From Candidatus Poribacteria bacterium (GTDB lineage: Bacteria > Poribacteria > WGA-4E > WGA-3G): DNA of 64,000 nt. The translations under genes and the position numbers were made by a program. How positions within the stretch are numbered: the stretch's first letter is position 1; every line of letters starts with the position of its first letter. The stretch is from assembly GCA_963664215.1 (NCBI GenBank), contig OY761015.1, one strand, 5' to 3'. Below are positions 26,301 to 56,794 of this stretch, piece after piece. Under the pieces are notes generated by a model. It ran no database searches and was not told the DNA's origin. It saw only the letters and a program-made list of their open reading frames with translations.

Positions 26301-27589
26301 CTCTATATTCGCCACGCGAACAACAAACAACGCTGGGTGTCGGCAGTCGCCAGGAACTAAAAGTCTGGTTCAACGGTGCCTTGATTCATCAGCACGGTCA
26401 TTACGACAGGATAGGCAATGATTACACGGATTTTTACCCTGTTACGCTTCAACCGGGGAAAAATGTCTTGTTGGTCGCGTTCCATTCCCACGCTAACGGT
26501 TTTTTTGGATTTGAAACCGGTACGGAATATATAGTGTCGGGCTCCGGTATTGGATATGGCGTTCCCGATACGCCAATTCATATCGGTGATACCTTCACCG
26601 TCAACTTAAACGCGGAGAATGTAAGTGATTTAGCAGGGTGGCAATTTGATGTTTTGTTTGATGCCGCAGTGCTTGAGACCGTTGAAGTCAACGAGGGTCC
26701 TTTCCTGAAGTCGGTGGGCGACGGCACCTTTTTTCAGAAAGGGACGATTGATAATGTCGCTGGCAAAATCAAAGGTATTAACGCATTGGACCTTAGCGGA
26801 AAGGGGGTCACAGGAACAGGGACCCTCGTGTCGGTGACGTTCTCAGCGAAAACGAGTGGGGAAGCTAAATTGAGACTGCATAACCTCCAAATAGGATCTA
26901 TTACAGGTGAACACATCGCCGCAGAATCTTATGAGATTGTCATCACGATAGAAGATCAACTCACTATTGGAGATGTAAATCGCGATGGTCAGATCAGCAT
27001 TCTTGATATGATCCTTATTGCCCGACACTTGGGCGAAACCGCACCTGCGAACGCTGAAGTAGACGTGAATGGCGATGGAATTGTGAATATCTTGGATCTC
27101 ATTCTTGTTTCTCAGAATATGGGTGGATCAAACGGATTAGCTGCCCCCTCAATGCTATCTGTGGATGACATAGACGGATTGGATCCTGCGATAATACGGG
27201 CATGGATAGAACGTGCCCAAGTTGAAGATGATGGTTCTATCGCTTTCCAAGAGGGCATTGCGAACCTTCAACGTCTCTTAGCGTCGCTTATTCCAGAAAA
27301 GACAGCACTGCTTCCGAACTATCCAAACCCGTTCAACCCAGAAACGTGGATACCGTATCACTTAGCGAACCCAAGTAAGGTGACACTGACAATCTATTCT
27401 GTGAATGGTATCTTGGTTCGGACCTTGGCGTTGGGACAAATGCCCGCTGGCATTTATCAAAGTCGTAGCCGTGCGGCGTATTGGGATGGCAGAAATGATG
27501 TGGGTGAACGCGTTGCTAGTGGCATCTACTTCTACCAACTCCAAGCCGATAATCTGTCGCTCCTGCGCAAAATGCTCATCATGAAATAG
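23375..27589 (+). CDS. Secreted cytochrome c/LRR/cohesin/dockerin/FlgD-type protein, paralog 1
   Basis: CLNCH and CIGCH heme motifs, LRRs, LAGWQFD cohesin-like domain, DVNRDG dockerin, NYPNPFNPETWIPY...RKMLIMK. Confidence 0.9.
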   Translation: MKNFIKISLIFTFIFGYQTANAQQNLAQQAYAIFEQSCLNCHGEHGAFTEEIIIEHTALIETGAVVPGKPIESELYKRLFAEDEAKRMPLGQPKLPVEAILTIGNWIQAGAPDWQAPERDTDFITPKEMLESIENHVNSLSPFDRTFARYFTLTHLYNAGETTEALHAYQRALSKLVNSLSWGRTIKIPQPIDSEETIFYIDLRDYEWEIGTNRWTLIEAEYPYEIEFNAPTQTALREKLTSLRQTMECEVPFVHVDWFIATASLPPLYHDILGLPETDRELETRLEVNVVENIRNAPGKRVWRAGFNNSGVSNHNRVVERHLSRYGAYWKSYDFAGSVESQNIFTHPLSFTHDGGEIIFNLPNGLQAYYLADAGGRRLDEAPIDIVSNPAASDPTVRNGLSCIGCHTEGMKDFQDTVRAVIQRNANPPFNKERALQLYIDKATMDRLVGEDTARYRQALEATGGVFGGIEPVQRFHEAFQRPLDAAHAAATVGLETEVFLQKIRENAGLQNLGLLVLENDTMKRDTWTSQFSEVVFALDFPAKSAGTPVDPQTERIPGESVHIPDPNLRAAIAEALGKAPNAQITVEEIEGLGRLVARDKGIQDLTGLQSAINLNRLSLNGNQISDLSPIAGLTGLHALWLTDNPVSDLSPLKQLINLTLLVIDNTHVSNLSPLAGLTNLNELGTSTPLISDLSPLKGLKNLKVFWFHRTQVSDLSPLSGLNSLEDVAANQGGIFEAISNIETETGIVIDTQHGNISDLSPLAGLTNLRRIWFWGNPISDLSPLAGLTKLEKLDICGGTISDLKPLVGLTNLTDLFLAANGISDISPLAELTSVNRLDLRSNNVSDISPLAGLAHLDYLRLNNNNISDFSSLDGIRQNITLIWHDNPGFPKGGPKIAGPWLWVLLPDADLESGSDLLSEVSGGSVTEAEIAVRGAIAGQSIGSSVWTSHELPNTGRIEDMLKRSIPNGTIYGVVSLYSPREQQTTLGVGSRQELKVWFNGALIHQHGHYDRIGNDYTDFYPVTLQPGKNVLLVAFHSHANGFFGFETGTEYIVSGSGIGYGVPDTPIHIGDTFTVNLNAENVSDLAGWQFDVLFDAAVLETVEVNEGPFLKSVGDGTFFQKGTIDNVAGKIKGINALDLSGKGVTGTGTLVSVTFSAKTSGEAKLRLHNLQIGSITGEHIAAESYEIVITIEDQLTIGDVNRDGQISILDMILIARHLGETAPANAEVDVNGDGIVNILDLILVSQNMGGSNGLAAPSMLSVDDIDGLDPAIIRAWIERAQVEDDGSIAFQEGIANLQRLLASLIPEKTALLPNYPNPFNPETWIPYHLANPSKVTLTIYSVNGILVRTLALGQMPAGIYQSRSRAAYWDGRNDVGERVASGIYFYQLQADNLSLLRKMLIMK

Positions 27590-27623
27590 TCTCATATGAC
27601 CATAGGATAACTAAAAGGCTGAT
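27584..27623. mobile_element. Orphan end of the two-gene element
   Basis: AAATAGTCTCATATGACCATAGGATAACTAAAAGGCTGAT aligns with element ends at 35268, 41291 and 54860. Confidence 0.75.
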
Positions 27624-27738
27624 CTGGACCCTCTCAGACATAGCACTGTTGCATTACAAAACGCCCCAGACGTAGGACCGAATTGAACGTTTCAGTCGAT
27701 GTCAACGTAGCCAAATCTTTTTGTGAGGAGGGGACTCT

Positions 27739-31004: not shown

Positions 31005-31160
31005 GGTATCCGTAGGGTTCGTAGAAGCGATGTATCGCTTCCACCAAGGCGCGTGAATTGCACTCCTACGAACAACCCGAATTTTAAACTGGACAGTCCA
31101 ACGACAGCCAAAAGGTATCGCGAGCACAACTCACTCTTTCAAGAAGGAAGAAAGAAATAC

Positions 31161-34100
31161 ATGAAGAACTTCATCAAAATTAGCCTTATATTCACGGTTA
31201 TCTTCGGATATCAGACCGCGGATGCCCAGCAGAACCTCGCCCAACAAGCGTATGCGATCTTTGAGCAAAGTTGTCTCAACTGCCACGGTGAGCATGGTGC
31301 GTTCACTGAAGAAATCATTATTGATCACACGGCACTCATCGAAACAGGGGCAGTCGTTCCGGGAAAGCCCATTGAATCCGAACTCTATAAGCGGCTCTTT
31401 GCAGAGGATGAAGCAAAACGGATGCCGTTGGGTCAACCGAAACTTCCCGTCGGAGCGATTCTGACGATCGGTAACTGGATTCAAGCCGGTGCTCCAAATT
31501 GGGATGACACCGTTGAAGCAGATGGGACCTTCATTACACCGAAAAAAATGCTTGAGAGTATTGAGAAGCACGTCAACTCACTCTCTCCGTTTGACCGCAT
31601 CTTCGCACGTTATTTTACGATGACGCATCTCTATAACGCTGGTGAGACGACGGAGGCACTGCATGCCTATCAACGGGCACTCTCGAAACTCGTGAATAGT
31701 CTCTCCTGGGGGCGTAATGTTATTAACCCACGACCCATTGATCCGAAAGAAACAATCTTCTATATCGATCTGCGCGACTACGAATGGGAGATCGGCACCA
31801 ATCGGTGGACCCTGATTGAGGCGGAGTATCCTTATGAGATCGAATTCAACACGCCAACACAGACAGCACTTCGTGAAAAACTGACAAACCTGCGGCAAAC
31901 AATGGAGTGCGAAGTGCCGTTCGTTCATGTCGATTGGTTCATCGCAACAGCCTCTTTACCCCCACTCTACCATAATATTCTGGGACTGCCCGAGACGGAT
32001 CGTGAACTCGAAACTCGATTGGAAGTAAATGTCGTTGAAAATATTCGCAACGCCGCGGGAAAGCGCGTCTGGCGTGCGGGTTTCAACAACTCTGGTGTGT
32101 CGAATCACAACCGCGTTGTTGAACGGCACCTTTCACGATATGGTGCGTATTGGAAAAGTTACGACTTTGCGGGGAGTGTAGAGTCGCAGAATATCTTTAC
32201 GCATCCGCTCTCTTTTACCCACGATGGGGGTGAAATTATCTTCAATTTACCGAATGGCTTGCAGGCATACTACCTCGCGGATGCCGGTGGCAGACGACTT
32301 AACGAAGCACCGATAAAGATTGTTCGCAACCTCGCAGCGAGTGATCCAACCGTCCGGAATGGACTCTCCTGTATCGGATGCCACACTGAGGGAATGAAAG
32401 ATTTTGAAGATCAGGTGCGTGGGGTCGTTCAGAAGAACCCGAACCCACCCTATAACAAAGATAGGGCATTGCAACTCTATACGGACAAAGCGACAATGGA
32501 TGCGCTTGTGGCAGAGGATACTGCTCGCTACAGGCAGGCACTTGAAACAGCAGGCGGTGTATTTGGTGGTATTGAACCCGTTCAGCGGTTCCACGAAGCG
32601 TTTCAGAGACCGCTTGATGTGTCACATGCTGCTGCCTCGGTAGGATTAGAAACAGTCGATTTTCTCCAAAAGGTTCGCGAGAATACGAGTCTGAAAAATT
32701 TAGGCTTGGGAGTGCTGACCGGTGTGAATGGCAGTGTGAAAAGGGATACATGGACATCGAATTTCAGCGAAATCGTTGCGACCTTGGGGTCACCTGAAAG
32801 CAGTGGGATTAAACCAGTTGTGCCGCAGACTGAACGTATTCCTGGGACTACCGTCGATATTCCAGATCCAAATCTCCGCACTGCGGTTGCAGAAGCACTC
32901 GGTAAAGCTCCCAAGGACACCATTACAGTGGAAGAGATGGCAACATTAGAGCGTCTTCATGCAAACGGGAAGGACATTAAGGATTTGAGGGGACTTGAGT
33001 TCGCAACAAATCTGGAAACTTTAGAAATTCGTGACAATCTGGTATCCGACCTCTCTCCGGTCGCAGGGTTAACCCAACTCAGTCGATTAAGCATAGAAGG
33101 AAATAAGGTTTCGGATATTTCACCACTTACAGAACTAAAAAATTTAGGATCACTCGGAATATATAATAATGAAATATCTGACATCTCACCACTATCAGAA
33201 TTAACAAACTTACGAGGGTTATCTATGTATAAGAATCCGGTCTCAGATCTTTCACCCCTCACAAATTTAAAAAACCTCACCTGGATAAGGTTGCGTGTTG
33301 AACCGCCCGGTAATCTCTCACCCATCGCGGAATTAATCAACTTGGAAGCTTTTTTCTATTGGGGTTCAGGCGAACCGGTTCCGGATTTATCACCTCTAAC
33401 AAAGCTACCAAAACTCGCAAAGATAGATCTTGGAGGCGGCGGTAAAGTGGACGTATCTCCTCTATCAGGATTGACAACTGTGAAAGAACTATGGCTACCC
33501 GACTGCGGAATCTCTAATCTCTCATTTTTAGAAAAACTCACCACCTTGGAACGGGCAAACCTTGGACGGAACAACATCTCAGATATATCGGCACTATCGG
33601 CATTACCGAATCTGAAGTGGTTAGATCTTAGGGAAAATCAGATATCCGATTTTTCACCTTTGGATGGGGTCCGTGAGCAGATAAAGCTCATTTGGTACAA
33701 CAATCCCGGGTTCTCAGGAGGCGGCCCGAAAATAGAGGGACCCTGGTTATGGGCTGTCCTGGCGGACGTGGACGTTACTAACCACCGTTGGTCCTTACTG
33801 CAGAGGGATTTACTATCAGAAGTAACTGGTGGGAAAGTAACAGAGGCAGAGATTGCTGCACGTGGGGCAGTAGAGGGGCAATCTGTCGGTAGTAGCGTTT
33901 GGACCTCTTACAAACTCCCGTCTACAGGGCGGATGGAGGATATGTTGAAACCTCCTGTTCCAGGCGGTGCCATCTACGGATCTGTGCTCCTATTTTCGCC
34001 ACGGGAACAGGCAACAACCCTATATGTCGGCAGCCCCTTTGAGCTCCAAGTCTGGCTCAATGGAACTTTGATCCACCAGCATACGCGTCACACAAGGCGG

Positions 34101-35273
34101 GGCACTGATTATACGGATGATTACCGTGTGACACTTCAGCGGGGAAAAAATGTCTTGTTGGTCGCACTTCTCAGCGATGGTCAGGGCTTTTTTGGGTTTG
34201 AACCAGAGACAGAATATACAGTGTCAAACTACGGTGTTAAATATACCTTTTCCAAGCCAACGATCCATGTCGGCGATACGTTTACCCTTGATATTAGCGC
34301 AGAAAACGTGCCCAATTTAGCGGGATGGCAGTTTGATATCGCATTCGACACTGCAATGCTCAAGGCAACTGAGGTAAACGAAGGTGGATTTTTGAAAACA
34401 GGAGGTGCATCGACCTTCTTTCAAAGAGGAACGATTAATAACGCCGCTGGGAGAATCAGAGGTCTCAGTTCAGCGAGTCTCAGCGGGGAGGGTGTCACCG
34501 GTACGGGTGCGTTACTGTCGGTAACCTTCTCAGCAAAGGTAGCCGGACAGACGCAATTGGTATTGCATAACTTCCAGTTTGGTTCCAGCACAGGCGAGGC
34601 TCTCCCCGCAGAACCTCATAAAGTTGTCATTGTTGTGGAGGAGCGGCTCACTACCGGAGATATAAACCGAGATGGACAGGTGAGTATCTTGGATATAATT
34701 ATAGTCGCCAAACATTTAGGAGAAACGGCACCCGCCAACTCGGACGTGGACGTAAACAGTGATGGAGTCGTTAGCATCCTGGATCTCATCCTTGTGGCAC
34801 AACAGATGGGTAAGTCAGCTGCCGCCGCTCCCTCTGCTATTGCTGCGATGAATAACGGGGAACTAAACCCTGTGATGATACAGTCATGGATCGAACAGGC
34901 ACAAGTTGAAGACGACGGCTCCATTGCCTTCCGAGAGGGTATCGCTTTCCTGCAAAGTCTTTTAGCAATGTTGATTCCAGAAAAGACAGCACTGCTTCCG
35001 AACTATCCGAACCCGTTCAACCCAGAAACGTGGATACCGTATCACTTAGCGAATCCAAGTGAGGTGACACTAACAATCTATTCTGTGACGGGTGAAATCG
35101 TGCGAACCTTGACGTTAGGGCATCAACCAGCGGGGATGTATCGGACGCGAAGTCGTGCGGCGTATTGGGATGGCAAAAATGCTTTCGGTGAACGCGTAGC
35201 GAGTGGTCTCTATTTCTACACGCTCACAGCGGGTGATTTCATTGGAACGCGAAGACTGTTAATTATGAAATAG
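31161..35273 (+). CDS. Secreted cytochrome c/LRR/cohesin/dockerin/FlgD-type protein, paralog 2
   Basis: Same architecture; start MKNFIK at 31161 matches paralogs. Confidence 0.9.
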   Translation: MKNFIKISLIFTVIFGYQTADAQQNLAQQAYAIFEQSCLNCHGEHGAFTEEIIIDHTALIETGAVVPGKPIESELYKRLFAEDEAKRMPLGQPKLPVGAILTIGNWIQAGAPNWDDTVEADGTFITPKKMLESIEKHVNSLSPFDRIFARYFTMTHLYNAGETTEALHAYQRALSKLVNSLSWGRNVINPRPIDPKETIFYIDLRDYEWEIGTNRWTLIEAEYPYEIEFNTPTQTALREKLTNLRQTMECEVPFVHVDWFIATASLPPLYHNILGLPETDRELETRLEVNVVENIRNAAGKRVWRAGFNNSGVSNHNRVVERHLSRYGAYWKSYDFAGSVESQNIFTHPLSFTHDGGEIIFNLPNGLQAYYLADAGGRRLNEAPIKIVRNLAASDPTVRNGLSCIGCHTEGMKDFEDQVRGVVQKNPNPPYNKDRALQLYTDKATMDALVAEDTARYRQALETAGGVFGGIEPVQRFHEAFQRPLDVSHAAASVGLETVDFLQKVRENTSLKNLGLGVLTGVNGSVKRDTWTSNFSEIVATLGSPESSGIKPVVPQTERIPGTTVDIPDPNLRTAVAEALGKAPKDTITVEEMATLERLHANGKDIKDLRGLEFATNLETLEIRDNLVSDLSPVAGLTQLSRLSIEGNKVSDISPLTELKNLGSLGIYNNEISDISPLSELTNLRGLSMYKNPVSDLSPLTNLKNLTWIRLRVEPPGNLSPIAELINLEAFFYWGSGEPVPDLSPLTKLPKLAKIDLGGGGKVDVSPLSGLTTVKELWLPDCGISNLSFLEKLTTLERANLGRNNISDISALSALPNLKWLDLRENQISDFSPLDGVREQIKLIWYNNPGFSGGGPKIEGPWLWAVLADVDVTNHRWSLLQRDLLSEVTGGKVTEAEIAARGAVEGQSVGSSVWTSYKLPSTGRMEDMLKPPVPGGAIYGSVLLFSPREQATTLYVGSPFELQVWLNGTLIHQHTRHTRRGTDYTDDYRVTLQRGKNVLLVALLSDGQGFFGFEPETEYTVSNYGVKYTFSKPTIHVGDTFTLDISAENVPNLAGWQFDIAFDTAMLKATEVNEGGFLKTGGASTFFQRGTINNAAGRIRGLSSASLSGEGVTGTGALLSVTFSAKVAGQTQLVLHNFQFGSSTGEALPAEPHKVVIVVEERLTTGDINRDGQVSILDIIIVAKHLGETAPANSDVDVNSDGVVSILDLILVAQQMGKSAAAAPSAIAAMNNGELNPVMIQSWIEQAQVEDDGSIAFREGIAFLQSLLAMLIPEKTALLPNYPNPFNPETWIPYHLANPSEVTLTIYSVTGEIVRTLTLGHQPAGMYRTRSRAAYWDGKNAFGERVASGLYFYTLTAGDFIGTRRLLIMK

Positions 35274-35371
35274 TATCATATGACCCTAGGATAGCTCGGA
35301 TGCTGATGTTTATTAGCTTCCCAGCGATCGCTGATGAGTGGAATGATGTGCTTGAAGGCACATTTGCCTCA

Positions 35372-35400
35372 AGTATAGCAATACGAATAGGGGGTGTCAA
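35372..35400 (-). promoter_or_regulatory. Outward-facing sigma70 promoter in element copy 1
   Basis: Minus strand TTGACA-17 nt-TATACT with extended -10 TG. Confidence 0.75.
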
Positions 35401-35408
35401 CCCTATTT

Positions 35409-36266
35409 TCAAGTCAACTGCTCCTGTTTTGCTAAGTTTGCATCGATGGTTTGGAGTTGATGCTGTGGAATCAGGTCAAGATATTGGGTGATAACGCGCT
35501 TAGAAAGTCGTGTAATCTGCGAGATTTGGTCAATATCGGCAGTCGCCGCACGAACGACTTTCACCGACTCATAATCCCGAATGTATCGATCGACAGCCTC
35601 CTTGGAGTGCTTCATCTTGGCGGCGATAGTCGGGGTGAGATAGCCTTGAAGATAGAGGGTGATGATCTCTTTCTTGTGGGTAATCGCCCCGGATAGATCG
35701 TGGATATTGCCTCGAGTGGGTAAGATGTCTCCTGTGGTTCTCTGCCATTCATTGACATAGTCATTGACGACCTGATCACAGACGTTGAGTAAGACCGCTA
35801 AGTCAAGATGGGTCAATAAGGCGCCTTGGTCATAAGCCTGATGACACCAACGAACCAAGCGATTGATTCTCAGTTGCCGGGAAGTGAACCCGTCGCGAAA
35901 GGATTCGACATCCTCTGCGGCGACATAGGTCAGGATGATGGGTTTCATACGGGTCTTGATGATGGCTTTGCCTCTTTCGGGGTATTCATCAACAGGGACT
36001 GCCATCCAGACGAGTTGTCCATAGCGGAGGTATCGCTCCTCGGGCAGTTCATCTGCCATGGCGAGTTTTTCCAGAGGGAGGGTAATGACGAAATACTGCT
36101 CAACGGTCTTGAGAATATCCTCAACAATGGCAGTGGCAGTGACTTCGCCTTTGTCATACCCGTAGTCATTGAGAAAGCGATGGATCAACAACTGTCGTAG
36201 CGATTTATCGTTGATGCGCCTGACTTTCTTCTCATTGATTTGCGTGCGCGTCAAAGGTTTGCTCAT
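35409..36266 (-). CDS. Element ORF B (DUF1670-like), intact
   Basis: AYDQGALLT..DLA.LL, TRGNIHDLSGAITHK, HSKEAVDRY. Confidence 0.8.
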   Translation of the reverse strand: MSKPLTRTQINEKKVRRINDKSLRQLLIHRFLNDYGYDKGEVTATAIVEDILKTVEQYFVITLPLEKLAMADELPEERYLRYGQLVWMAVPVDEYPERGKAIIKTRMKPIILTYVAAEDVESFRDGFTSRQLRINRLVRWCHQAYDQGALLTHLDLAVLLNVCDQVVNDYVNEWQRTTGDILPTRGNIHDLSGAITHKKEIITLYLQGYLTPTIAAKMKHSKEAVDRYIRDYESVKVVRAATADIDQISQITRLSKRVITQYLDLIPQHQLQTIDANLAKQEQLT

Positions 36267-37077
36267 CGCAGATCCCCCTTTTTTTCATCCACGGGTTCGG
36301 GGTGAAGCAGTTGGGTCATGCGATCGGTGTCTTGGTGTTCTTCATACAACGAGAGATACTCGCGAACGAGGCGATCCGAGAAGTGGGTGATCAGGCGTAT
36401 CTGTGCGCTCGGAAACCCTTGATGATGCAGCGTGGCGACTTGTGTAAAATCTCTGAGGTAGCGGTAGACGGCACGTTCGGAGTGGTTGGTCTTCTGCTGA
36501 ATCTCGGTGAAGGTGTAGTCCTTGAAATACAAATCGAGAATCTGCGTCTTATGAGACAGCCCCGGTCCCATGTCGTGCTTGGCGCCACGCGTCATGACGA
36601 AATACCCGTCGTGTTTCAAGGCTCGGATGTCGCGTTTGACGCTCGCAGGACTCGTGGTTAATAAGATGGCTAAATCTTCATAACTCAGCAAGGCGTCTTG
36701 GTCGTAAGCTTCTTGGGTCAACCGCAGGATCCGATGTCGCCTGAGACCTGCCAGTCCATAAGTGGCTAAGACTTCGAGGTCGACTTGCGTGTCATTGAGC
36801 GTCAGCCGACAGGAGACTTTCTTGGCTAAGGCGATGTGTTTCCCGGTTCCGGTTCTTCGGCAGCGACGGCCTCGTAGCAGATTTGCCCGGATGTGAGTTT
36901 GACATCAGCGTGTTGGGCAAAGTAGGTAGAAATCTGTTGATAGTAGGCTTCGGCGACGATAGGCATAAGATTGAAGTCTGCTGAAATCTTCTGAATAATC
37001 GCGGCTCTAGCATTCTTGGATTCGAGTCGGTTGATACCGTAAGCGGTATCGTTTTGGCGTGTCATAGTGACCTCCAT
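36263..37077 (-). pseudogene. Element ORF A (DUF1670-like), frameshifted near 36845
   Basis: Split into ORFs 36826-37122 and 36263-36721; 2 nt longer than copy 2 at this point. Confidence 0.75.
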
Positions 37078-37234
37078 GAAGGGAGTCTGGGTGATGTAAA
37101 TACATCTACCTGTTAGGTTCACTCATACTCTTAGTATAACTCATGGGGTCATATGATACAAACTATAAATAAGGTCGTACATCAAAAGATATTGCGAGCA
37201 CAACTCGCTCTTTCAAGAAGGAAAAAAGAGATAC

Positions 37235-40200: not shown

Positions 40201-41296
40201 TAACGGTTTTTGGGGGTTCAACCCTGAGGCGGAGTATACCGTGTTAAACCCGCGTCTCGGATACGTATTTTCCCAATCTATCATCGATGCCGGCGATACC
40301 TTCACGCTTGAAATTAGGGCAGAGGATATCTACAATTTAGCAGGATGGCAATTCGATATGACTTATGACGCCGCTCTGCTTGAAGCCGTTGAAGTCAACG
40401 AAGGCGATTTCCTGAAGACAGGGGACGGAGCGACCTTCTTCCAGAGAGGGACGATTGAGAATCGGTCGGGTAAGATTAAAGGGCTGAGTTCCGCACGACT
40501 CAGCGAAGACGGGGTTAGCGGCACTGGTACGTTGTTGTCAGTAACATTCACAGCGAAAACAGCTGGGCAAACGCGATTGAGACTCGATAACTTTCAACTC
40601 GCTGCTATCACCGGGAAGCCCATCGATGCAGGACCGCATGCGGTCGTCATTACTGTAAAGGGAGAACAGACGACCGGGGATGTAAATCGGGATGGTCAGG
40701 TAAGCATTCTGGATATGGTGCTTGTGGCTCGCCACCTTGGAAAAACCGTTCCCCCTAACTCGGATGTTGACCTAAATGGCGACGGAATTGTGAACATCTT
40801 GGATCTCATTCTTGTTTCCCAGAATATGGGCGGATCAAACGGCTTGGCTGCCCCGTCAATGCTATCTGTGGACAGTATGGAAGGATTGGATCCTGCGATA
40901 ATACAGGCATGGATAGCGCAGGCACAACTTGAAGATGACGGCTCTATCGTCTTCCAACAGGGCATCGCGAAACTTCAGGAACTTCTGCGATCGTTGATCC
41001 CGAAAGAGACGGTGTTGCTTGCGAACTATCCGAATCCGTTCAATCCAGAAACGTGGATACCGTATCAACTCTCGGAATCTGCGGAGGTCACCTTGCGGAT
41101 CTATGCTGTGAATGGTATCTTGGTTCGGACGTTGGCGTTGGGACAAATGCCCGCTGGCATTTATCAAAGCCGGAGCCGTGCGGCGTATTGGGATGGTAAA
41201 AATGCCGTAGGTGAACGCGTAGCGAGTGGTCTCTATTTCTACACACTCACAGCCGGTAATTTCACGGCAACGCGGAAGATGCTAATACGGAAATAG
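37235..41296 (+). CDS. Secreted cytochrome c/LRR/cohesin/dockerin/FlgD-type protein, paralog 3
   Basis: Same architecture; ends RKMLIRK. Confidence 0.9.
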   Translation: MKNFIKISLIFTVIFGYQTADAQQNLAQQAYAIFEQSCLNCHGEHGAFTEEIIIEHTALIETGAVVPGKPIESELYKRLLTDDDTKRMPLGQPRLPPAAILTIGNWIQAGAPDWQTRERDTGFITPKEMLESIEKHVNSLSPFDRTFARYFTLTHLYNAGETTEALHAYQRALSKLVNSLSWGREVIKPQAIDPEETIFYIDLRDYEWEIGTNRWTQIEQVYPYSIEFNAPKQTNLREKLTTLREVMECEVPFVHVDWFIATASLPPLYHDILGLPETDRELEDRLEVNVVENLRNAAGKRVWRAGFSDSGVSNHNRVVERHISRYGAYWKSYDFAGSVESQNIFTHPLSFTHDGGEIIFNLPNGLQAYYLADAGGRRLDAAPIQIVRNLAASDPTVRNGLSCIGCHTEGMKDFEDQVRGVAEKNPNPPFDKNRVLQLYTDTATMEALLVEDTDRYKQALEATGDVFGGIEPVLRFHEAFQRPVDAAYAAAVVGLETEVFLQKMRVSANLKGLGVLVLENGTMKRDTWTSKFSEIVFALDFPEAAISVDPQTERIPGASVYIPDPNLRAVIEENLGKTPNAPITVEEMATLERIFPEDKGISDLTGLEFATNLEWLKIESNQISDLSPLAGLTKLDLLDISANEISDLSPLTGLTNLRHIKVSHNNISDLSPLAGLPNLKRFDSWGNPVSNLLPLVELEVIDICGGEPDISTLEGAKNLKELYLLGGGISDVSPVAKLTGLTRLGVAGNPLSDISPLATLTGLKWLELSENKISDISPLVKLTNLKWLHIGGNMISDFSPLDGFSEDVTIINHTNPGFPKGGPKIEGPWLWVLVPEADIRSAVAGKLEHPNDDLLANLDVLAEASGGKVTELKVSTHGATEGNPVGNDVWYSGTISSTGRNNIETVLTPEVLAGPFVPGVIYGCVVLYSPRQQAVTLFAGNDGGGKAWLNGTLVHEKLQGARGVDYQHFVPVTLKEGVNVLLVATRTGGNGFWGFNPEAEYTVLNPRLGYVFSQSIIDAGDTFTLEIRAEDIYNLAGWQFDMTYDAALLEAVEVNEGDFLKTGDGATFFQRGTIENRSGKIKGLSSARLSEDGVSGTGTLLSVTFTAKTAGQTRLRLDNFQLAAITGKPIDAGPHAVVITVKGEQTTGDVNRDGQVSILDMVLVARHLGKTVPPNSDVDLNGDGIVNILDLILVSQNMGGSNGLAAPSMLSVDSMEGLDPAIIQAWIAQAQLEDDGSIVFQQGIAKLQELLRSLIPKETVLLANYPNPFNPETWIPYQLSESAEVTLRIYAVNGILVRTLALGQMPAGIYQSRSRAAYWDGKNAVGERVASGLYFYTLTAGNFTATRKMLIRK

Positions 41297-41397
41297 TGTC
41301 ATATGACCCTAGGATAGCTGGGAGGCTGATGTCCATTGGAAACCTCCCAGCGATCACTGATGAGTGGAATGATGTGCTTGAAGGCACATTTGCCTCA

Positions 41398-41426
41398 AGT
41401 ATAGCAATACGAATAGGGGGTGTCAA
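41398..41426 (-). promoter_or_regulatory. Outward-facing sigma70 promoter in element copy 2
   Basis: Minus strand TTGACA-17 nt-TATACT. Confidence 0.75.
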
Positions 41427-41434
41427 CCCTATTT

Positions 41435-42293
41435 TCAAGTCAACTGCTCCTGTTTTGCTAAGTTTGCATCGATGGTTTGGAGTTGATGCTGTGGAATCAG
41501 GTCAAGATATTGGGTGATAACGCGCTTAGAAAGTCGTGTAATCTGCGAGATTTGGTCAATATCGGCAGTCGCCGCACGAACGACTTTCACCGACTCATAA
41601 TCCCGAATGTATCGATCGACAGCCTCCTTGGAGTGCTTCATCTTGGCGGCGATAGTGGGGGTAAGATGTCCTTGAAGATAGAGCGTGATGATCTCTTTCT
41701 TGTGGGTAATCGCCCCCGATAAGTCATGGATATTGCCACGCGTGGGTAAGATGTCTCCGGTGGTTCTTTGCCATTCGTTGACATAGTCATTGACGACCTG
41801 ATCACAGACGTTGAGTAAGACTGCCAAGTCGAGTTGAGTCAACAAGGCACCTTGGTCATACGCTTGGTGACACCAGCGGACCAAACGATTGATTCTCAGT
41901 TGTCGGGAGGTCAATCCATTGCGAAAGGATTCGACATCTTCTGTAGCAACATAGGTGAGAATGATGGGTTTCATACGGGTCTTGATGATGGCTTTGCCTC
42001 TTTCGGGGTATTCATCAATCGGGACTGCCATCCAGACGAGTTGTCCATAGCGGAGGTATCGCTCCTCGGGCAGTTCATCTCCCATGGCGAGTTTTTCCAG
42101 AGGGAGGGTAATGACGAAATACTCCTCAACGGTCTTGAGAATATCCTCAACAATGGCAGTGGCAGTGACTTCGCCTTTGTCATAGTCCGTAGTCATTGAG
42201 AAAACGATGGATCAACAACTGTCGTAGAGACTTATCGTTGATGCGTCTGACTTTCTTCTCATTGATTTGCGTGCGCGTCAAAGGTTTGCTCAT
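41435..42293 (-). pseudogene. Element ORF B, frameshifted near 42185
   Basis: CATAGTCCGTAG versus CATACCCGTAG in copies 1 and 3 (1 nt longer). Confidence 0.75.
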
Positions 42294-43102
42294 CGGAGAT
42301 CCCCCTTTTTTTCATCCACGGGTTCGGAGTGAAGCAGTTGGGTCATGCGATCGGTGTCTTGGTATTCTTCATACAACGAGAGATACTCGCGAACGAGGCG
42401 ATCCGAGAAGTGGGTGATCAGGCGTATCTGTGCACTCGGAAACCCTTGATGATGCAGCGTGGCGACCTGTGTGAAGTCTCTGAGGTAGCGGTAGATGGCG
42501 CGTTCGGAGTGGTTGGTCTTTTGCTCGATTTCGCTGAAGGTATAGTCCTTGAAATACAACTCGAGAATCTGCGTCTTATGAGACAGTCCTGGACCCATGT
42601 CGTGCTTGGCGCCGCGCGTCATGACGAAATAGCCGTCGTGTTTCAAGGCGCGGATGTCGCGTTTGACGCTGGCAGGACTCGTGGTTAATAAGATCGCTAA
42701 ATCTTCATAACTCAGCAAGGCGTCTTGGTCATAAGCTTCTTTGGTGAGTCGGAGGATCCGATGGCGTCTGAGACCTGCCAGACCATAAGTCGCTAAGACT
42801 TCCAAATCATCTTCGACGGCATTGAGCGTCAGTCGACAGGAGACTTTTTTCGCTAAGGCGATATGTTTGCCTGCGGGTTCTTCAGCAGCGACCGCCTCAT
42901 AGCAGATTTGTCCTGAGGTGAGTTGAACGTCGGCGTGTTGAGCAAAGTAGGTAGAAATCTGTTTATAGTAGGCTTCGGCCACTATAGGCATAAGATTGAA
43001 GTCTGCTGAAATCTTCTGAATAATCGCCGCCCTAGCATTCTTGGATTCGAGTCGGTTGATACCGTAAGCGGCATCCTTCTGGCGTGTCATATTGACCTCC
43101 AT
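42290..43102 (-). CDS. Element ORF A (DUF1670-like), intact
   Basis: AYDQDALLSYEDLAILL, TRGAKHDMGPGLSHK, HSERAIYRY; ATGA overlap with ORF B. Confidence 0.8.
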   Translation of the reverse strand: MEVNMTRQKDAAYGINRLESKNARAAIIQKISADFNLMPIVAEAYYKQISTYFAQHADVQLTSGQICYEAVAAEEPAGKHIALAKKVSCRLTLNAVEDDLEVLATYGLAGLRRHRILRLTKEAYDQDALLSYEDLAILLTTSPASVKRDIRALKHDGYFVMTRGAKHDMGPGLSHKTQILELYFKDYTFSEIEQKTNHSERAIYRYLRDFTQVATLHHQGFPSAQIRLITHFSDRLVREYLSLYEEYQDTDRMTQLLHSEPVDEKKGDLR

Positions 43103-43225
43103 GAAGGGAGTCTCGGTGATGAAAATACATCTACCTGTTAGATGAACTCATACTATGAGTATAACTCATGGGGTCATATGATACAAACCTTAAATAGAAA
43201 GACATTGATACAGTAACAAAAAAGT

Positions 43226-53700: not shown

Positions 53701-54865
53701 TCCAGTCACGCTGAAGCAAGGGATAAATATATTATGCGTCGCGGTTGAGTTCAATGGTAATGAATGGGGTGCCCATTTTGGGTTTGCCCCTGACACACAA
53801 TATACAGTCGTATTCCCAGGGACCGGCTTCGCATTTTCGGCGGATACCACACGTATTCGCGTCGGTGATACGGTCACACTCCGTATCGATGCGGAGAAAG
53901 TCACGGATTTAGCGGGCTGGCAGTTCGATCTCACATTTAATCCTGATGTACTTGAAGCGGTTGAAGTCAACGAAGGCGGTTTTCTGAAGAAAGGTGATGG
54001 AAACACGTTCTTTCAGCGCGGAACAATTGATAACACTGGGGGTAAAATTGTGGGATTAAGTTCGGCGCTGATCTCCAAAAACGGGGTCACCGGTACCGGT
54101 AACCTCTTGTCAGTGGTGTTCTCTGCGAAGGCAGAAGGGAACAGCCAGGTGGCATTACGCAACTTCCAACTCGGTTCTAATACGGGTGATGTGATTCCTG
54201 CTGGCATGCGCGATCTTACCATCACGGTTGGATCTCAACCGCTTTGGGATGTGAATGTGGATGGACAGGTCAGTATTTTGGATCTGATTCTTGTGGCACA
54301 GCACATGGGATCCGTCGCATCTGCCACCTCTAAAGTTGACGTAAACCGCGACGGAGTCGTCAGTATCTTGGACTTAATTCTCGTGGCGCAGCACATGGGT
54401 GAATCAACGGGTCCAGCGTCGCCTTCGATGCTTGCCATGGATAGCATAGACGGGTTGGATCCTGCGATGATACAAGCATGGATAGCGCGTGCGCACGTTG
54501 AAGATGATGGCTCTGTCGCCTTCCGAGAGGGTATCGCTTACCTTCAGAGTCTTTTAGTCTTGCTGACTCCAGAAGAGACAGCACTGCTTCCAAACTATCC
54601 GAATCCATTCAACCCAGAGACGTGGATACCGTATCATTTAGCGAAACCCAGTAATGTGCGGATTACCATCTATGACGCACGCGGTGCTTTGGTACGCCAA
54701 TTGGATCTCGGGCATCAACGTGAAGGCTACTACACGAGTCGGAGTCGTGCGGCGTATTGGGATGGCAGAAACGCCGTCGGCGAACGCGTTGCCAGTGGTG
54801 TCTATTTCTACCAATTGCAGGCGGATCATCTGTCGCTCCTGCGCAAGATGCTCATTTTGAAATAG
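50726..54865 (+). CDS. Secreted cytochrome c/LRR/cohesin/dockerin/FlgD-type protein, paralog 5
   Basis: Same architecture; ends RKMLILK. Confidence 0.9.
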   Translation: MNDQKIFIAFICLLMLLLGYQNVDAQGNLAQQAYAIFEQSCLNCHGEHGAFTENIIIEHAALIETGAVVPGKPIESELYKRLLIDDETKRMPLGQPRLPPAAILTIGNWIQAGAPDWTDTSEADGPFITPTKMLETIEKHVNALASFDRAFARYFTMTHLYNAGESAEALHAYRRALSKLVNSLSWGREVIKPQPIDLQETIFYIDLRDYEWEIGTNRWTQIEQVYPYKIGFEAPTQTHLREKLQTLRQEMNCEVPFVHVDWFLATASLPPLYHDILDLPKTDRELETRLEVNVVENIRNAAGRRVWRAGFNDSGVSNHNRVVERHTSRYGAYWKSYDFAGSVGTQNIFTHPLSFTHDGGEIIFNLPNGLQAYYLVDAGGNRLDAAPIKIVSNPAASDPTVRNGLSCIGCHTEGMKVFEDEVRGVVEQNANPPFNKARALRLYTEQATMETLVNEDTDRYRRALEAAGDVFGGIEPVQRFHEAFQGPIDAAHAAAAVGLETADFLGKIRENASLRNLGLGVLTGKSGSVKRDTWTSNFSGVVTTLGSPDSRAIKPIVPQTERIPGASVYIPDANLREVIEDALDKTPGDVITAEDMKTLVDLRGVGRGIRDLTGLETATDLEELYLQNNPISDISPLAGLVKLKEINLRNSSLSDLSPLSELILLKEVRFSGESIVDLSPLAGLTNLEGVGAWSTSISDASPLSGLTKLRWLELQGSPISDFSPFSGLTNLRRLEMYAAKTSDLSPLKGLTSLKILSIGNSQISDVFPLAGLINLEGLGLFANRHISDISPLASLKNLKVLDLTTNQISDVSPLAGLRNLEEVHLQRNNITDISPLDGLHENIQLAWYSNPGFPQGGPKIKGPWLWMFVPGVGFHEKMDYLSHASEGTVTESEVATYGAIEGSLVGEHVWTSHKIASASADRPDINVTLSDIGISKDHRRDDVVYGSLILNSPREQKTTMFAGSNHNHKVWLNGEFVHENLIGWAADYQDYFPVTLKQGINILCVAVEFNGNEWGAHFGFAPDTQYTVVFPGTGFAFSADTTRIRVGDTVTLRIDAEKVTDLAGWQFDLTFNPDVLEAVEVNEGGFLKKGDGNTFFQRGTIDNTGGKIVGLSSALISKNGVTGTGNLLSVVFSAKAEGNSQVALRNFQLGSNTGDVIPAGMRDLTITVGSQPLWDVNVDGQVSILDLILVAQHMGSVASATSKVDVNRDGVVSILDLILVAQHMGESTGPASPSMLAMDSIDGLDPAMIQAWIARAHVEDDGSVAFREGIAYLQSLLVLLTPEETALLPNYPNPFNPETWIPYHLAKPSNVRITIYDARGALVRQLDLGHQREGYYTSRSRAAYWDGRNAVGERVASGVYFYQLQADHLSLLRKMLILK

Positions 54866-54967
54866 TCTCATATGACCCTAGGAGTGCTGGGAGGCTGATG
54901 TCCATTGGAAACCTCCCAGCGATCACTGATGAGTGGAAATGATGTGCTTGAAGGCACATTTGCTTGA

Positions 54968-54996
54968 AGTATAACAATACGGGTAAGGGGTGTCAA
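54968..54996 (-). promoter_or_regulatory. Outward-facing sigma70 promoter in element copy 3
   Basis: Minus strand TTGACA-17 nt-TATACT; boxes conserved while the spacer differs from copies 1 and 2. Confidence 0.78.
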
Positions 54997-55004
54997 CCCT
55001 ATTT

Positions 55005-55862
55005 TCAACAGATCTGCTCCTTTTTTACTAAGTTTTCATCCATGGTTTGGAGTTGATCCTCTGGAATGAGGTCGAGATATTGAGTAATAACGCGTTTAGA
55101 AAGTCGTGTAATCTGTGAGATTTCGTCAATATCTGCGGTAGCTCTGCGAACGACTTTGACGGACTCATAATCCCGAATGTATCGATCAACCGCCTCCTTG
55201 GAGTGCTTCATCTTGGCAGCAATAGTCGGAGTAAGATATCCTTGAAGATAGAGGGTGATGATCTCTTTCTTGTGGGTAATCGCCCCCGATAAGTCATGAA
55301 TATTGCCGCGCGTGGGTAAGATTTCTCCAGTGGTTTTCTGCCACTCATTGACATAATCACAGACGACCTGATCACAGACGTTGAGCAAGACGGCCAAGTC
55401 AAGTTGTGTCAATAAGGCGCCTTGATCATAAGCTTGATGACACCAGCGAACCATGCGTTTCATCCGGAGTTGTCTGGAAGTAAACCCGTCGCGAAACGAT
55501 TCGACATCTTCTGCGGCGACATAGGTGAGAATGATGGGTTTCATACGGGTTTTGATGATCGCTTTACCTTTTTCAGGGTATTCATCAATCGGGACTGCCA
55601 TCCAGACGAGCTGTCCATAGCGGAGGTATCGCTCTTCGGGAAGTTCGTCGCCTTTGGCGAGTTTCTCCAGAGGCAGGGCAATGACGAAATACTGCTCAAC
55701 GGTCTTGAGGATATCATCAACAATAGCCGTCGCTGTGACTTCGCCTTTGTCATACCCGTAGTCATTGAGAAAGCGGTGGATCAGCAACTGTCGTAGCGAT
55801 TTATCGTTGATGCGTCTGACTTTCTTCTCGTTGACTTGCGTGCGCGTTGAGGGTTTACTCAT
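55005..55862 (-). CDS. Element ORF B (DUF1670-like)
   Basis: Homolog of 35409-36266; start MSKP at 55862. Confidence 0.82.
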   Translation of the reverse strand: MSKPSTRTQVNEKKVRRINDKSLRQLLIHRFLNDYGYDKGEVTATAIVDDILKTVEQYFVIALPLEKLAKGDELPEERYLRYGQLVWMAVPIDEYPEKGKAIIKTRMKPIILTYVAAEDVESFRDGFTSRQLRMKRMVRWCHQAYDQGALLTQLDLAVLLNVCDQVVCDYVNEWQKTTGEILPTRGNIHDLSGAITHKKEIITLYLQGYLTPTIAAKMKHSKEAVDRYIRDYESVKVVRRATADIDEISQITRLSKRVITQYLDLIPEDQLQTMDENLVKKEQIC

Positions 55863-56670
55863 CGGAGATCCCCTTTTTTTCATTCATGGGTTCGGGGTGA
55901 AGCAGCTGGGTCATGCGATCGGTGTGTTGGTATTGCTTATACAGCGAGAGATATTCGCGAATCAACCGGTCCGAGAAGCGAGTGATCAGGCGTATCTGTC
56001 CCTTGGGAAAGTCTTGATGATGCAACGTAGCAACTTGTGTGAAATCTCTCAAGTACCGCCAGACGGCGCGTTCGGAGTGGTTGGTCTTTTGCTCAATCTC
56101 GGTGAAGGTGTAGTCCTTGAAATACAAATCGAGAATCTGCGTCTTGTGAGATAGACCGGGTCCCATGTCGTGTTTCGTCCCGCGTGTCATCACGAAATAC
56201 CCGTCCTGCTTCAACGCTCGGATGTCGCGTTTGACGCTGGCAGGACTCGTGGTTAATAAGATGGCTAAATCTTCATAACTCAGCAAGGCGTCTTGGTCAT
56301 AAGCCTCTTTGGTCAATCGCAGGATCCGATGGCGTCTGAGACCGGGTAGACCATAATCAGCTAAGACTTCGAAGTCCTCTGTGACATCATTGAGCGTCAG
56401 ACAGCAGGAAACTTTCCTCGCAAGAGCGATGTGTTTGCCTGCGGGTTCCTCAGCAGCGACGGCCTCGTAGCAGATCTGTCCTGAGGAGAGTTGAATGTCG
56501 GCATGTTCCTGAAAATAGCCAGCAATCTGTTTATAGTAGGCTTCGGCCATGATCGGCATCAAATTGAAGTCTGCTGAAATCTTCTGAATAATCGCCGATC
56601 TGGCATTCTTAGATTCGAGACGTTTGATGCCATAGACCGCATCCTTTTTGCGTGTCATAAGGACCTCCGT
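55855..56670 (-). CDS. Element ORF A (DUF1670-like)
   Basis: Homolog of 42290-43102; start uncertain (MTRKK at 56658 or upstream). Confidence 0.8.
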   Translation of the reverse strand, partial: TEVLMTRKKDAVYGIKRLESKNARSAIIQKISADFNLMPIMAEAYYKQIAGYFQEHADIQLSSGQICYEAVAAEEPAGKHIALARKVSCCLTLNDVTEDFEVLADYGLPGLRRHRILRLTKEAYDQDALLSYEDLAILLTTSPASVKRDIRALKQDGYFVMTRGTKHDMGPGLSHKTQILDLYFKDYTFTEIEQKTNHSERAVWRYLRDFTQVATLHHQDFPKGQIRLITRFSDRLIREYLSLYKQYQHTDRMTQLLHPEPMNEKKGISDE

Positions 56671-56794
56671 GAAATCCGTCTGGGTGATGCAAATACATCT
56701 ACCTGTTAGCATAACTCATAGTTAGCATAACTATCAGTATAACTCATGGGGTCATATGAGACAAACTATAAGTAGATAAGAAAGGAACTACAAC

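Follow-up and report, generated by a model that had tools for sequence, protein, structure and literature searches.

An outward promoter and a candidate structured RNA at the 3' end of a DUF1670-encoding, insertion-sequence-like element in Poribacteria

Insertion sequences of the IS110/IS1111 group encode a structured bridge (or seek) RNA in a non-coding end, together with a DEDD/RuvC-like transposase. The omega-RNAs of TnpB and IscB (IS200/IS605-type elements) have a scaffold made from the 3' end of the element and are transcribed into the flank. RNA-OUT of IS10 is antisense to the transposase mRNA, whose 5' end it overlaps, and the junction promoters of IS911, IS30 and IS2 are assembled from halves that lie in two abutted ends. 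Here we describe the 3' non-coding end (positions 35270-35408, the left edge when the plus strand is read) of a 1.9 kb insertion element in a 64,000-nucleotide stretch of a Candidatus Poribacteria genome (contig OY761015.1 of assembly GCA_963664215.1; hereafter the window), where a near-consensus sigma-70 promoter points outward over a region with predicted RNA hairpins. We give a probability of about 0.5 to a genuine element-encoded outward transcript, whose role would be regulatory or expression-related and which would not determine the choice of target; on whether there is NEVERTHELESS a functional RNA, that is, a discrete or regulatory transcript, the odds are about even. The element around it is the larger novelty. 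It is insertion-sequence-like, carries a pair of DUF1670 genes and nothing else, and is previously undescribed by the literature searched; in some lineages its end holds predicted promoter-driven structured RNAs.

The locus shares with IS110/IS1111 an end-encoded candidate structured RNA, site-specific insertion, a repeated dinucleotide and a loop that resembles the target. It differs in having DUF1670 proteins with multiple helix-turn-helix (HTH) modules, a promoter that is complete when the element is integrated, and clear terminal inverted repeats; there is no convincing per-copy covariation of loop and target, no Rfam match, and no donor-matching loop was identified, none having been sought systematically. 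The likeness to TnpB and IscB systems lies in a putative RNA scaffold at the 3' end and a geometry that allows read-through into the flank, whereas here there is no TnpB, IscB or nuclease, and inverted repeats and a 2-bp repeat are present. An outward promoter near the end and a stem-loop RNA also recall pOUT and RNA-OUT of IS10, but our promoter lies behind the last gene, its RNA would be antisense only to the host gene, and a duplex between the RNA and the leader of open reading frame (ORF) A was not significant (-48.4 vs -37.8 +/- 5.1 kcal/mol, with 11/300 shuffles as good), so that this candidate pairing was rejected as not convincing. As in IS911, IS30 and IS2, transcription into the transposase genes would be strong once the ends abut in a circle; here, however, the promoter is complete and sits 100-135 nt inside the element, and no junction was seen in a weak search of Joint Genome Institute (JGI) contigs. 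The 2-bp flanking repeat, terminal inverted repeats and HTH modules are shared with IS630/Tc1-mariner and IS607, but no DDE or serine-recombinase domain was found, the repeat is AA instead of TA or GG, and the target is a codon of one gene family.

The outward promoter and the RNA module

The promoter reads TTGACA-17-TGnTATACT, matches the consensus at 11/12 positions and lies 5 nt behind the stop of ORF B. An earlier reading of this DNA, made from the sequence alone, had described TTGACA-17-TATACT with an extended -10 in every copy, with boxes that stay fixed while the spacer drifts, and both points hold at larger scale. All three copies in the window and 12/12 copies in the host genome carry the promoter. 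After 80 loci from other Poribacteria genomes had been added to give a set of 94 (L001-L094), the promoter was followed by the element terminus within 100-260 nt at 88; the six exceptions are three loci that have the promoter but whose terminus an intron interrupts (L003, L008, L012), two relics (L013, L014) and one locus whose spacer is one base short (L070). Among 30 distinct core promoter strings, the TG of the extended -10 is present in every one, the -10 box is TATACT in 28 (TATAAT and TACACT once each), the -35 box is TTGACA in 22 and departs from it at one position in the other 8, and the two boxes are 17 nt apart in 22 strings and 18 nt apart in 8, while spacer positions are only ~40-80% conserved. 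Scanning 35000-37400 gave two promoter-like sites, this one included (shuffles gave 3.0 +/- 1.5 at the lower threshold of the scan). The promoter-like site of ORF A itself (TTGTCT/TTGTAT-17-TATACT, without the TG) looks weaker, with a poor -35 box. The promoter is kept in only 1/18 relics fetched from genomes without DUF1670, which indicates that it goes with intact elements. On this sequence evidence the promoter is genuine-looking and under strong conservation. Its -35 box lies inside a short palindrome (window 35392-35408 and equivalent positions) that changes in step between subfamilies (TAGGGTTGACACCCCCTA; GGTTGACAACC; GGCTTGACACGCC) and may be an operator for the HTH proteins.

Transcription from this site would pass through hairpin H1, then in most relatives a second hairpin, H2, and then the long imperfect stem H3, before the terminal inverted repeat. 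This order of ATGTGC/GCACAT, long stem and repeat is the one proposed from the sequence alone, and the proposal of a structured stretch of ~90 nt also stands up, as the ~95 nt of the window copies fold better than shuffles (z = -3.52, -4.41 and -4.28; 200 dinucleotide shuffles each). The H3 stem is GCTGGGAGG/CCTCCCAGC in copies 2 and 3 and weaker in copy 1. The post-promoter sequences, 49 of them distinct, form a short class of 99-103 nt (10, including those of the window) and a long class of 131-136 nt (39), and H2 occurs only in the latter. The short class of the window looks like a later 33-nt deletion of H2.

Covariation was examined in several ways. RNAalifold on plain MAFFT alignments, of all 49 sequences or of the long class alone, gave almost no structure because of register shifts and mixed length classes, and when every column was compared with every other, the pairs that emerged were all scattered and phylogeny-like. 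We also set H1, H2 and H3 by hand from single-sequence folds and counted them on the 39 long-class sequences: 83.8% of helix cells pair, against 34-46% with partners slid by 1-3 columns, a paired fraction that hand-setting biases upward, though the slid controls are informative. Double-sided change occurs in 7/27 pairs, a number reached by 17/500 shuffles, and the covariation score is 0.159 vs 0.117 (0/500 shuffles reach 0.159), although the sequences are related and these shuffle controls therefore overstate significance. Such double changes are found in H1, at a single pair of H2 and where the loop of H3 is closed; the main stem of H3 has none. H1 keeps its pairing with quite different sequences among subfamilies and thus behaves as a nucleic-acid structure, unlike a sequence-specific protein site. 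Helix cells that read G-U on the promoter's strand outnumber those that read A-C, 110 to 69, a modest hint that this strand is the one that folds.

Rfam 15 returned nothing for 27000-57500 at E <= 1 except a sub-threshold CRISPR-DR row elsewhere, nothing at gathering score in three loci of the set (L001, L005, L026) and nothing at E <= 0.1 in 7 loci from other phyla. A small ORF within the RNA was considered and rejected, because a 1-nt indel puts copy 3 out of register with the 16-codon frame seen in copy 1.

The element and its insertion site

The host genome holds 12 near-full-length copies of the element, dispersed and 83-100% identical, together with two short pieces; three of the copies are in the window (Table 1). 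Each consists of two tandem minus-strand genes, both DUF1670 paralogues, and no other genes. The element runs ATAGT...ACTAT, with inverted repeats ATAGT(TTG)TATCATATGACC and a far end reading ...CAAACTAT. Several copies are decaying: ORF A is truncated in copy 1, and others have frameshifts or a stop. The general hallmarks of an insertion sequence are all seen, namely dispersed copies, terminal inverted repeats, a short target repeat and empty sites. The suggestion that this is the end of a mobile element is supported by the dispersed copies, the termini and the empty and filled paralogues, and its proposed extent of 35274-35408 was nearly right; only the start moves, to 35270, where ATAG supplies the stop codon of the host gene. 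A plasmid collection contained neither a DNA nor a protein match for the element. Between the 5'-terminal repeat and ORF A, all 5' ends have direct repeats (C)ATGAGTTA / TAGTATGAGTT (window 37100-37140), within which a -10-like TATACT falls; these are likely protein-binding sites.

Insertion occurs at the last codon of genes for cargo of the type IX secretion system (T9SS). All 12 copies in the genome sit behind genes with a conserved last ~100 nt, and in the window the last 100 residues of 4/4 genes tested match TIGR04183 (32.0-39.9 bits, cut-off 23), one of the four being the unoccupied paralogue. The final A and the TAG stop of the host gene in front of copy 1 (35270-35273) come from the element. 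The gene-side junction is invariably AAATAG/T, and on the far side ...CAAACTAT is followed by AAR and TAA, TAG or TGA, in a sequence that differs even between near-identical copies. A tandem paralogue pair in the host genome gives the comparison of empty and filled sites: the empty paralogue reads ...GATCCTCAAGTAGGGACACAGC, and the filled one reads ...GATCCTCAA, then the element (ATAGTAT...CAAACTAT), then AAGTAGGGACACAGC. Orthologous empty sites in relatives were too diverged (66-70%) for clean junctions. A tblastn census found 54 T9SS gene ends in the genome, 12 with the element, 2 with relics, 1 with a group II intron only and 39 empty. The 3' terminus is shared by 89/92 Poribacteria loci, and in 89/89 of these it is followed by TT in the sense of the element; the 5' terminus is preceded by the reverse complement of AAR and a stop in 83/90 (TAA 47, TAG 29, TGA 7), in counts that include near-identical copies, so that loci are not independent. 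From these junctions, insertion is codon-precise at the AA of the terminal Lys codon and flanked by a 2-bp AA repeat. Since the element supplies its own A-TAG, the Lys-stop is restored and the host ORF preserved. The element is invariably oriented convergently with the host gene. Its targeting is thus exact yet gentle: one codon of T9SS cargo genes is hit and the Lys-stop rebuilt, in records that bear the labels of roughly ten phyla. This makes the element a candidate tool for tagging or following T9SS substrates.

Table 1. Coordinates of the features in the window
Feature	Coordinates	Strand	Remarks
Element copy 1	35270..37166	-	1897 bp; genes on the minus strand
Element copy 2	41293..43191	-	Promoter and RNA module at 41293-41426
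Element copy 3	54862..56769	-	Both ORFs intact; promoter and RNA module at 54862-54996
Degenerate relic of the element 3' end, behind paralogue 1	27586..27650	-	Without promoter, without DUF1670 genes
3'-terminal inverted repeat, copy 1	35270..35286	-	Element sense ...GGGTCATATGATACTAT
5'-terminal inverted repeat, copy 1	37146..37166	-	Element sense ATAGTTTGTATCATATGACCC
Left AA direct repeat, copy 1	35268..35269	.	Target duplication or crossover dinucleotide; from comparison of empty and filled paralogues
Right AA repeat (37167-37168) and remainder of the host's original Lys-stop (AAA TAA)	37167..37172	.	
Predicted outward promoter	35372..35400	-	-35 TTGACA 35400-35395; 17-nt spacer; TG 35380-35379; -10 TATACT 35377-35372
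Predicted hairpin H1, AUGUGC/GCACAU	35346..35363	-	Just after the predicted start near 35365
Conserved single-stranded CCACUCAU	35334..35341	-	Reverse complement of ATGAGT, which is present twice at the 5' end
Predicted hairpin H3, long imperfect stem	35290..35329	-	Loop 35304-35315 (RNA UAAUAAACAUCA) resembles the consensus target
ORF B, DUF1670, 285 aa	35409..36266	-	PF07900 E 4.4e-62
ORF A, DUF1670 paralogue, truncated in copy 1	36263..36721	-	Intact in copy 3: 55855-56712, probable start near 56658
Host gene, leucine-rich repeat/cohesin/dockerin protein with C-terminal T9SS type A sorting domain	31053..35273	+	Pfam; TIGR04183 33.4 bits (cut-off 23), last 100 aa
Five paralogues of the host gene family	23375-27589, 31053-35273, 37235-41296, 46573-50646, 50726-54865		Three with the element, one with a relic, one empty

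What the transcript may do and what chooses the target

We picture the promoter between ORF B and the inverted repeat as launching a transcript that would carry H1 at its 5' end, H2 in most relatives, and H3. An integrated copy would then fire outward, sending a transcript protected by its 5' hairpin through the terminal repeat and into the host gene in antisense, as the sequence-only reading had also supposed and as the geometry supports; what an integrated copy yields could thus be either an antisense read-out or a structured small RNA. Were the element excised as a circle, or present in tandem, transcription from this promoter would cross the junction and enter ORF A and ORF B. The RNA, or transcription itself, might modulate transposition or shield the element from read-through from the host. 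Our confidence is highest for outward firing, lower for reading into the genes from a circle, and lowest for modulation or shielding.

Several results weigh against such a transcript. Besides the inflated significance of the shuffle controls, three folds of the long class beat their shuffles only modestly (z -1.7, -3.4, -1.9), and the main stem of H3 has double-sided change in 0/13 pairs, so that H3 could equally be an inverted repeat at the DNA level; the conserved CCACUCAU may likewise be a protein site on DNA. A scan of the locus found no intrinsic terminator for the RNA, and a weak search of JGI metagenome contigs for the circle or tandem junction pattern gave 0 matches. Other DUF1670 lineages lack the module of the Poribacteria type or have something quite unlike it, and its function is therefore not essential to the family. 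Finally, a constitutive antisense promoter sits oddly in an element that otherwise spares its host gene.

The case for a guide, put forward by analogy with IS110 bridge RNAs, rests on the H3 loop, which was supposed to be the most variable part of the RNA and to resemble the adjacent target weakly in a fixed register. The resemblance is real, as the flank is matched by the consensus loop AATAAACATC at a mean of 7.1/10 at one register, 3 nt from the AA, and at <= 4.6/10 at 44 other offsets. It is, however, generic, since what the loop resembles is the Lys-Met-Leu-Ile consensus common to T9SS ends, and the loop is in fact among the best-conserved parts of the RNA. The check for covariation of loop and target gives a slight excess. 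Loops match their own flank at 6.93/10 (n=87, one locus being dropped as its flank is cut by a contig end) against 6.83 +/- 0.04 when flanks are permuted, and 34/5000 permutations reach the own-flank match, yet the effect is 0.1 nt among non-independent copies; of 45 variant positions in the loops, 9 have the variant base in the flank as well, vs 4.0 expected, a small effect among related copies. A guide or bridge-like RNA, whose H3 loop (AAUAAACAUC) would pair with the target GATGTTnATT 3 nt from the insertion point and direct the DUF1670 proteins, can draw on the single register, the conservation of the loop and this excess, and on a 3-nt insertion variant (UUUCC) that extends the likeness to the target's ...GGAAA. 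Yet seven loci of one genome (L019-L025) have identical RNA at four distinct flanks, the loop of L093 and L094 fails to match the different flank found at these two loci, 39 unoccupied T9SS ends bear the same motif, and the likeness of the 10-mer is a single event with a rough chance estimate of ~0.03 to 0.6, depending on the positions allowed. Lineages whose 3' ends are too short for such an RNA and lack the hairpin, or differ in this slot, keep the termini and the target, and so this RNA cannot specify the target of the family. These lineages, the identical loops at different flanks and the non-DEDD proteins together speak against a programmable guide in the style of IS110, and we find the bridge-like role very unlikely. 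Slightly less probable still is an omega-RNA-like role, in which the element end would be a scaffold and the flank-derived 3' part would pair with paralogous T9SS ends and aid homing or retention. The order of internal promoter, scaffold, terminus and flank would fit, and the T9SS ends are alike over their last ~100 nt, so that a flank-derived guide would find paralogues; against this, the element has no TnpB, IscB or nuclease domain, several lineages with the same target lack the module, and in 3/12 copies a group II intron parts the scaffold from the flank. Even taken together, the two variants of a guide role are improbable. TGATAC is common to the terminal repeat (CATATGATAC) and the most frequent target (GATGTTGATAC-GG-AA), which form an inverted pair at the junction. 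It is more likely that target choice rests on the HTH proteins, which would recognise the ...ATGnTGATAC that the terminal repeat has in common with the target's Lys-Met-Leu-Ile codons.

Two further explanations we also regard as unlikely, the first a little less so than the second. The whole module might act on the DNA level only, with the hairpin arms, CCACTCAT and the loop motif serving as subterminal binding sites for the DUF1670 proteins, the promoter working after excision or being a by-product, and no discrete RNA being made. The unchanged pairs of the H3 main stem are consistent with this, as are the ATGAGT motifs at both ends in inverted orientation, the resemblance of the loop motif to both terminal repeat and target, and the persistence of H3 and the terminal repeat in promoterless relics, which is partly an ascertainment effect because our search model favours such relics. 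But H1 pairs while its sequence changes between subfamilies, the transcribed strand has more G-U than A-C cells, conservation of the promoter is extremely high and takes in its extended -10, and another lineage has a long hairpin of conserved structure and variable sequence in the same slot (see below), all of which speaks against a DNA-only role. The transcript might instead be directed at the host, as an antisense regulator or an insulator against T9SS read-through that protects ORF A and ORF B or tunes the cargo gene. This would suit the invariably convergent orientation, the complementarity of the loop and the flank-derived part to T9SS mRNAs, and the loss by the host gene of its own terminator, its 3' region being displaced by 1.9 kb with no plus-strand terminator in 35270-35420. 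It fits less well with the otherwise codon-exact preservation of the host ORF, and with the absence of the module from lineages of the same geometry. We therefore keep an element-encoded outward transcript with a regulatory or expression-related role as our preferred reading. That the DUF1670 pair is a new kind of recombinase or transposase with the structured RNA as its cofactor, which would assist in locating the last codon of T9SS cargo genes through the H3 loop or a flank-derived part, seems quite improbable; if true, RNA-assisted transposition would have been invented independently a third time, beside the IS110 bridge RNAs and the TnpB/IscB omega-RNAs.

DUF1670 proteins, other lineages and relics

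Both proteins of the element belong to DUF1670 (PF07900; ORF B 209.8 bits, ORF A 152.6 bits with E 1e-44, gathering cut-off 25), both have HTH sub-matches in Pfam, and they are identical at 68/192 aligned residues. All 26 PF07900 matches in the genome fall within the 12 elements. Across 75 sequences H204, H227 and Y235 are invariant; R146, D197 and K205 are further invariant residues. An AlphaFold2 model of ORF B (predicted local distance difference test, pLDDT, 86.1) consists of helices apart from a small beta hairpin; Foldseek against the PDB gave nothing at E <= 1e-3, with weak HTH, TFIIB and paired-domain rows (including Tc3 and Pax). In NCBIfam, PHROGs and PADLOC the two proteins drew no more than a BirA-type HTH row below threshold and a single row labelled 'transcriptional regulator', the PDB searched by sequence returned nothing meaningful for the pair, and a protein atlas gave HTH leads only, all below 0.9. 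No DEDD, DDE, serine-recombinase, TnpB, IscB or other nuclease domain was found in the element proteins by Pfam, NCBIfam or Foldseek. We nevertheless infer that the DUF1670 proteins catalyse DNA breakage, because the pair are the only genes of the element, which makes it a test case for DNA movement by a protein without a known catalytic fold. Predicted as a complex, ORF A and ORF B scored 0.32 (best of 3 controls 0.00; verdict 'weak support'), a score reached by 58/80 solved complexes and 2/110 mismatched pairs, while at <= 0.60 lie only 7 of the 80 solved complexes yet both mismatches. At least 54% of contacts agree between runs and the partner pLDDT is at least 68. The two proteins may act together, but we put no weight on this prediction. 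The DUF1670 family comprises 1002 clusters at 50% identity, and the literature searched makes no mention of DUF1670 or PF07900; being the only cargo of a widespread mobile element is thus a first functional context for it. Four proteins of ~930-950 aa (P0135, P0136, P0141, P0148) have three DUF1670 matches each and are a fused form of the two-gene pair.

The element is not confined to Poribacteria. A distant DUF1670 protein (P0289) recruited 64 further loci, whose record titles name Ignavibacteria, Bacteroidetes, Melioribacteraceae, Saprospiraceae, Cloacimonadota, Verrucomicrobia, KSB1, Fidelibacterota, Neomarinimicrobiota, Zixiibacteriota, Calditrichota, Phycisphaeraceae and others; these labels, from about ten other phyla, are those of the records, and short contigs in bins may be mislabelled. 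Another distant homologue (P0139) recovered no loci in genome or metagenome contigs. Several genomes of the other phyla hold 5-6 copies. The 3' terminus is shared by 56/64 loci, followed by TT in 53/56, and 41/48 5' termini follow a Lys-stop; 7/7 upstream genes tested match TIGR04183 (28.1-54.8 bits). Many relatives lie on contigs of 1.7-2.3 kb, which is the usual assembly signature of a repeat.

What follows ORF B varies among these lineages. The Ignavibacteria type has a terminator-like hairpin and ~70 AT-rich bases, and several lineages have only ~35-90 nt. A third lineage (L116, L118, L119, L120, L130, L140, L154) has TTGAC(A/T/G) right behind ORF B and then a candidate RNA of ~200 nt, with a conserved CCGG-closed domain (CCGGUGAAACGG...GGGAUAGCCGG) and a long hairpin whose sequence is wholly different between copies while the pairing is kept. 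Compensatory change is seen in 12/28 predicted pairs (7 sequences), and Rfam has no match for this second type of RNA. Two unrelated predicted structured RNAs in one place suggest that the slot behind ORF B is used for RNA, and they make the role of RNAs at transposon ends testable outside IS110 and IS200/605.

A covariance model of the Poribacteria module finds 14 places in its own genome, the 12 elements and the 2 relics, and has matches in 22/31 genomes of the order, while PF07900 is found in 9/31. Thirteen genomes have the module without DUF1670, four of them single-contig assemblies. The 18 places fetched from 10 such genomes are relics, variously truncated and some resembling miniature inverted-repeat transposable elements (MITEs) with both ends, and 17/18 continue into TT and a T9SS gene end. 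Element-end relics thus flank T9SS genes in many Poribacteria genomes without DUF1670, where they are easily mistaken for motifs of the host 3' untranslated region. Three loci, L165 and L166 (genome G005) and L168 (genome G010), are MITE-like, internally deleted to a few hundred bp with both ends kept, and no DUF1670 gene was found in these genomes. Three genomes of the genus share one long-class 3'-end relic behind what is apparently one and the same T9SS gene (C2 5316849-5316986 of the host genome, L013; L163 in G002; L175 in G018), and this relic therefore predates their split.

The surroundings of the element hold further repeats and insertions. An ORF-less group II intron of ~745 nt (GTGCG...CACTAC; RF00029 65.6 bits) lies within the terminal repeat, between ...AAATAGTAT and CATATGACC, in 3/12 copies and in the sense of the host gene (C2 of the host genome near 2384540, 2562367 and 5123681; approx. 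758-1503 of L003, the same in L008, and on the minus strand in L012). A fourth intron copy (C2 +170363) directly follows the stop of an element-free T9SS gene, so that the intron, too, homes to T9SS gene ends. The five paralogous host genes of the window encode proteins of ~1350-1400 aa with PSCyt1, leucine-rich repeats, cohesin, dockerin and the T9SS sorting domain. Just past copy 3, the ORF at 56795-58861 contains ~9 tandem copies of a 126-nt repeat, 71-75% alike (window 57589-58644).

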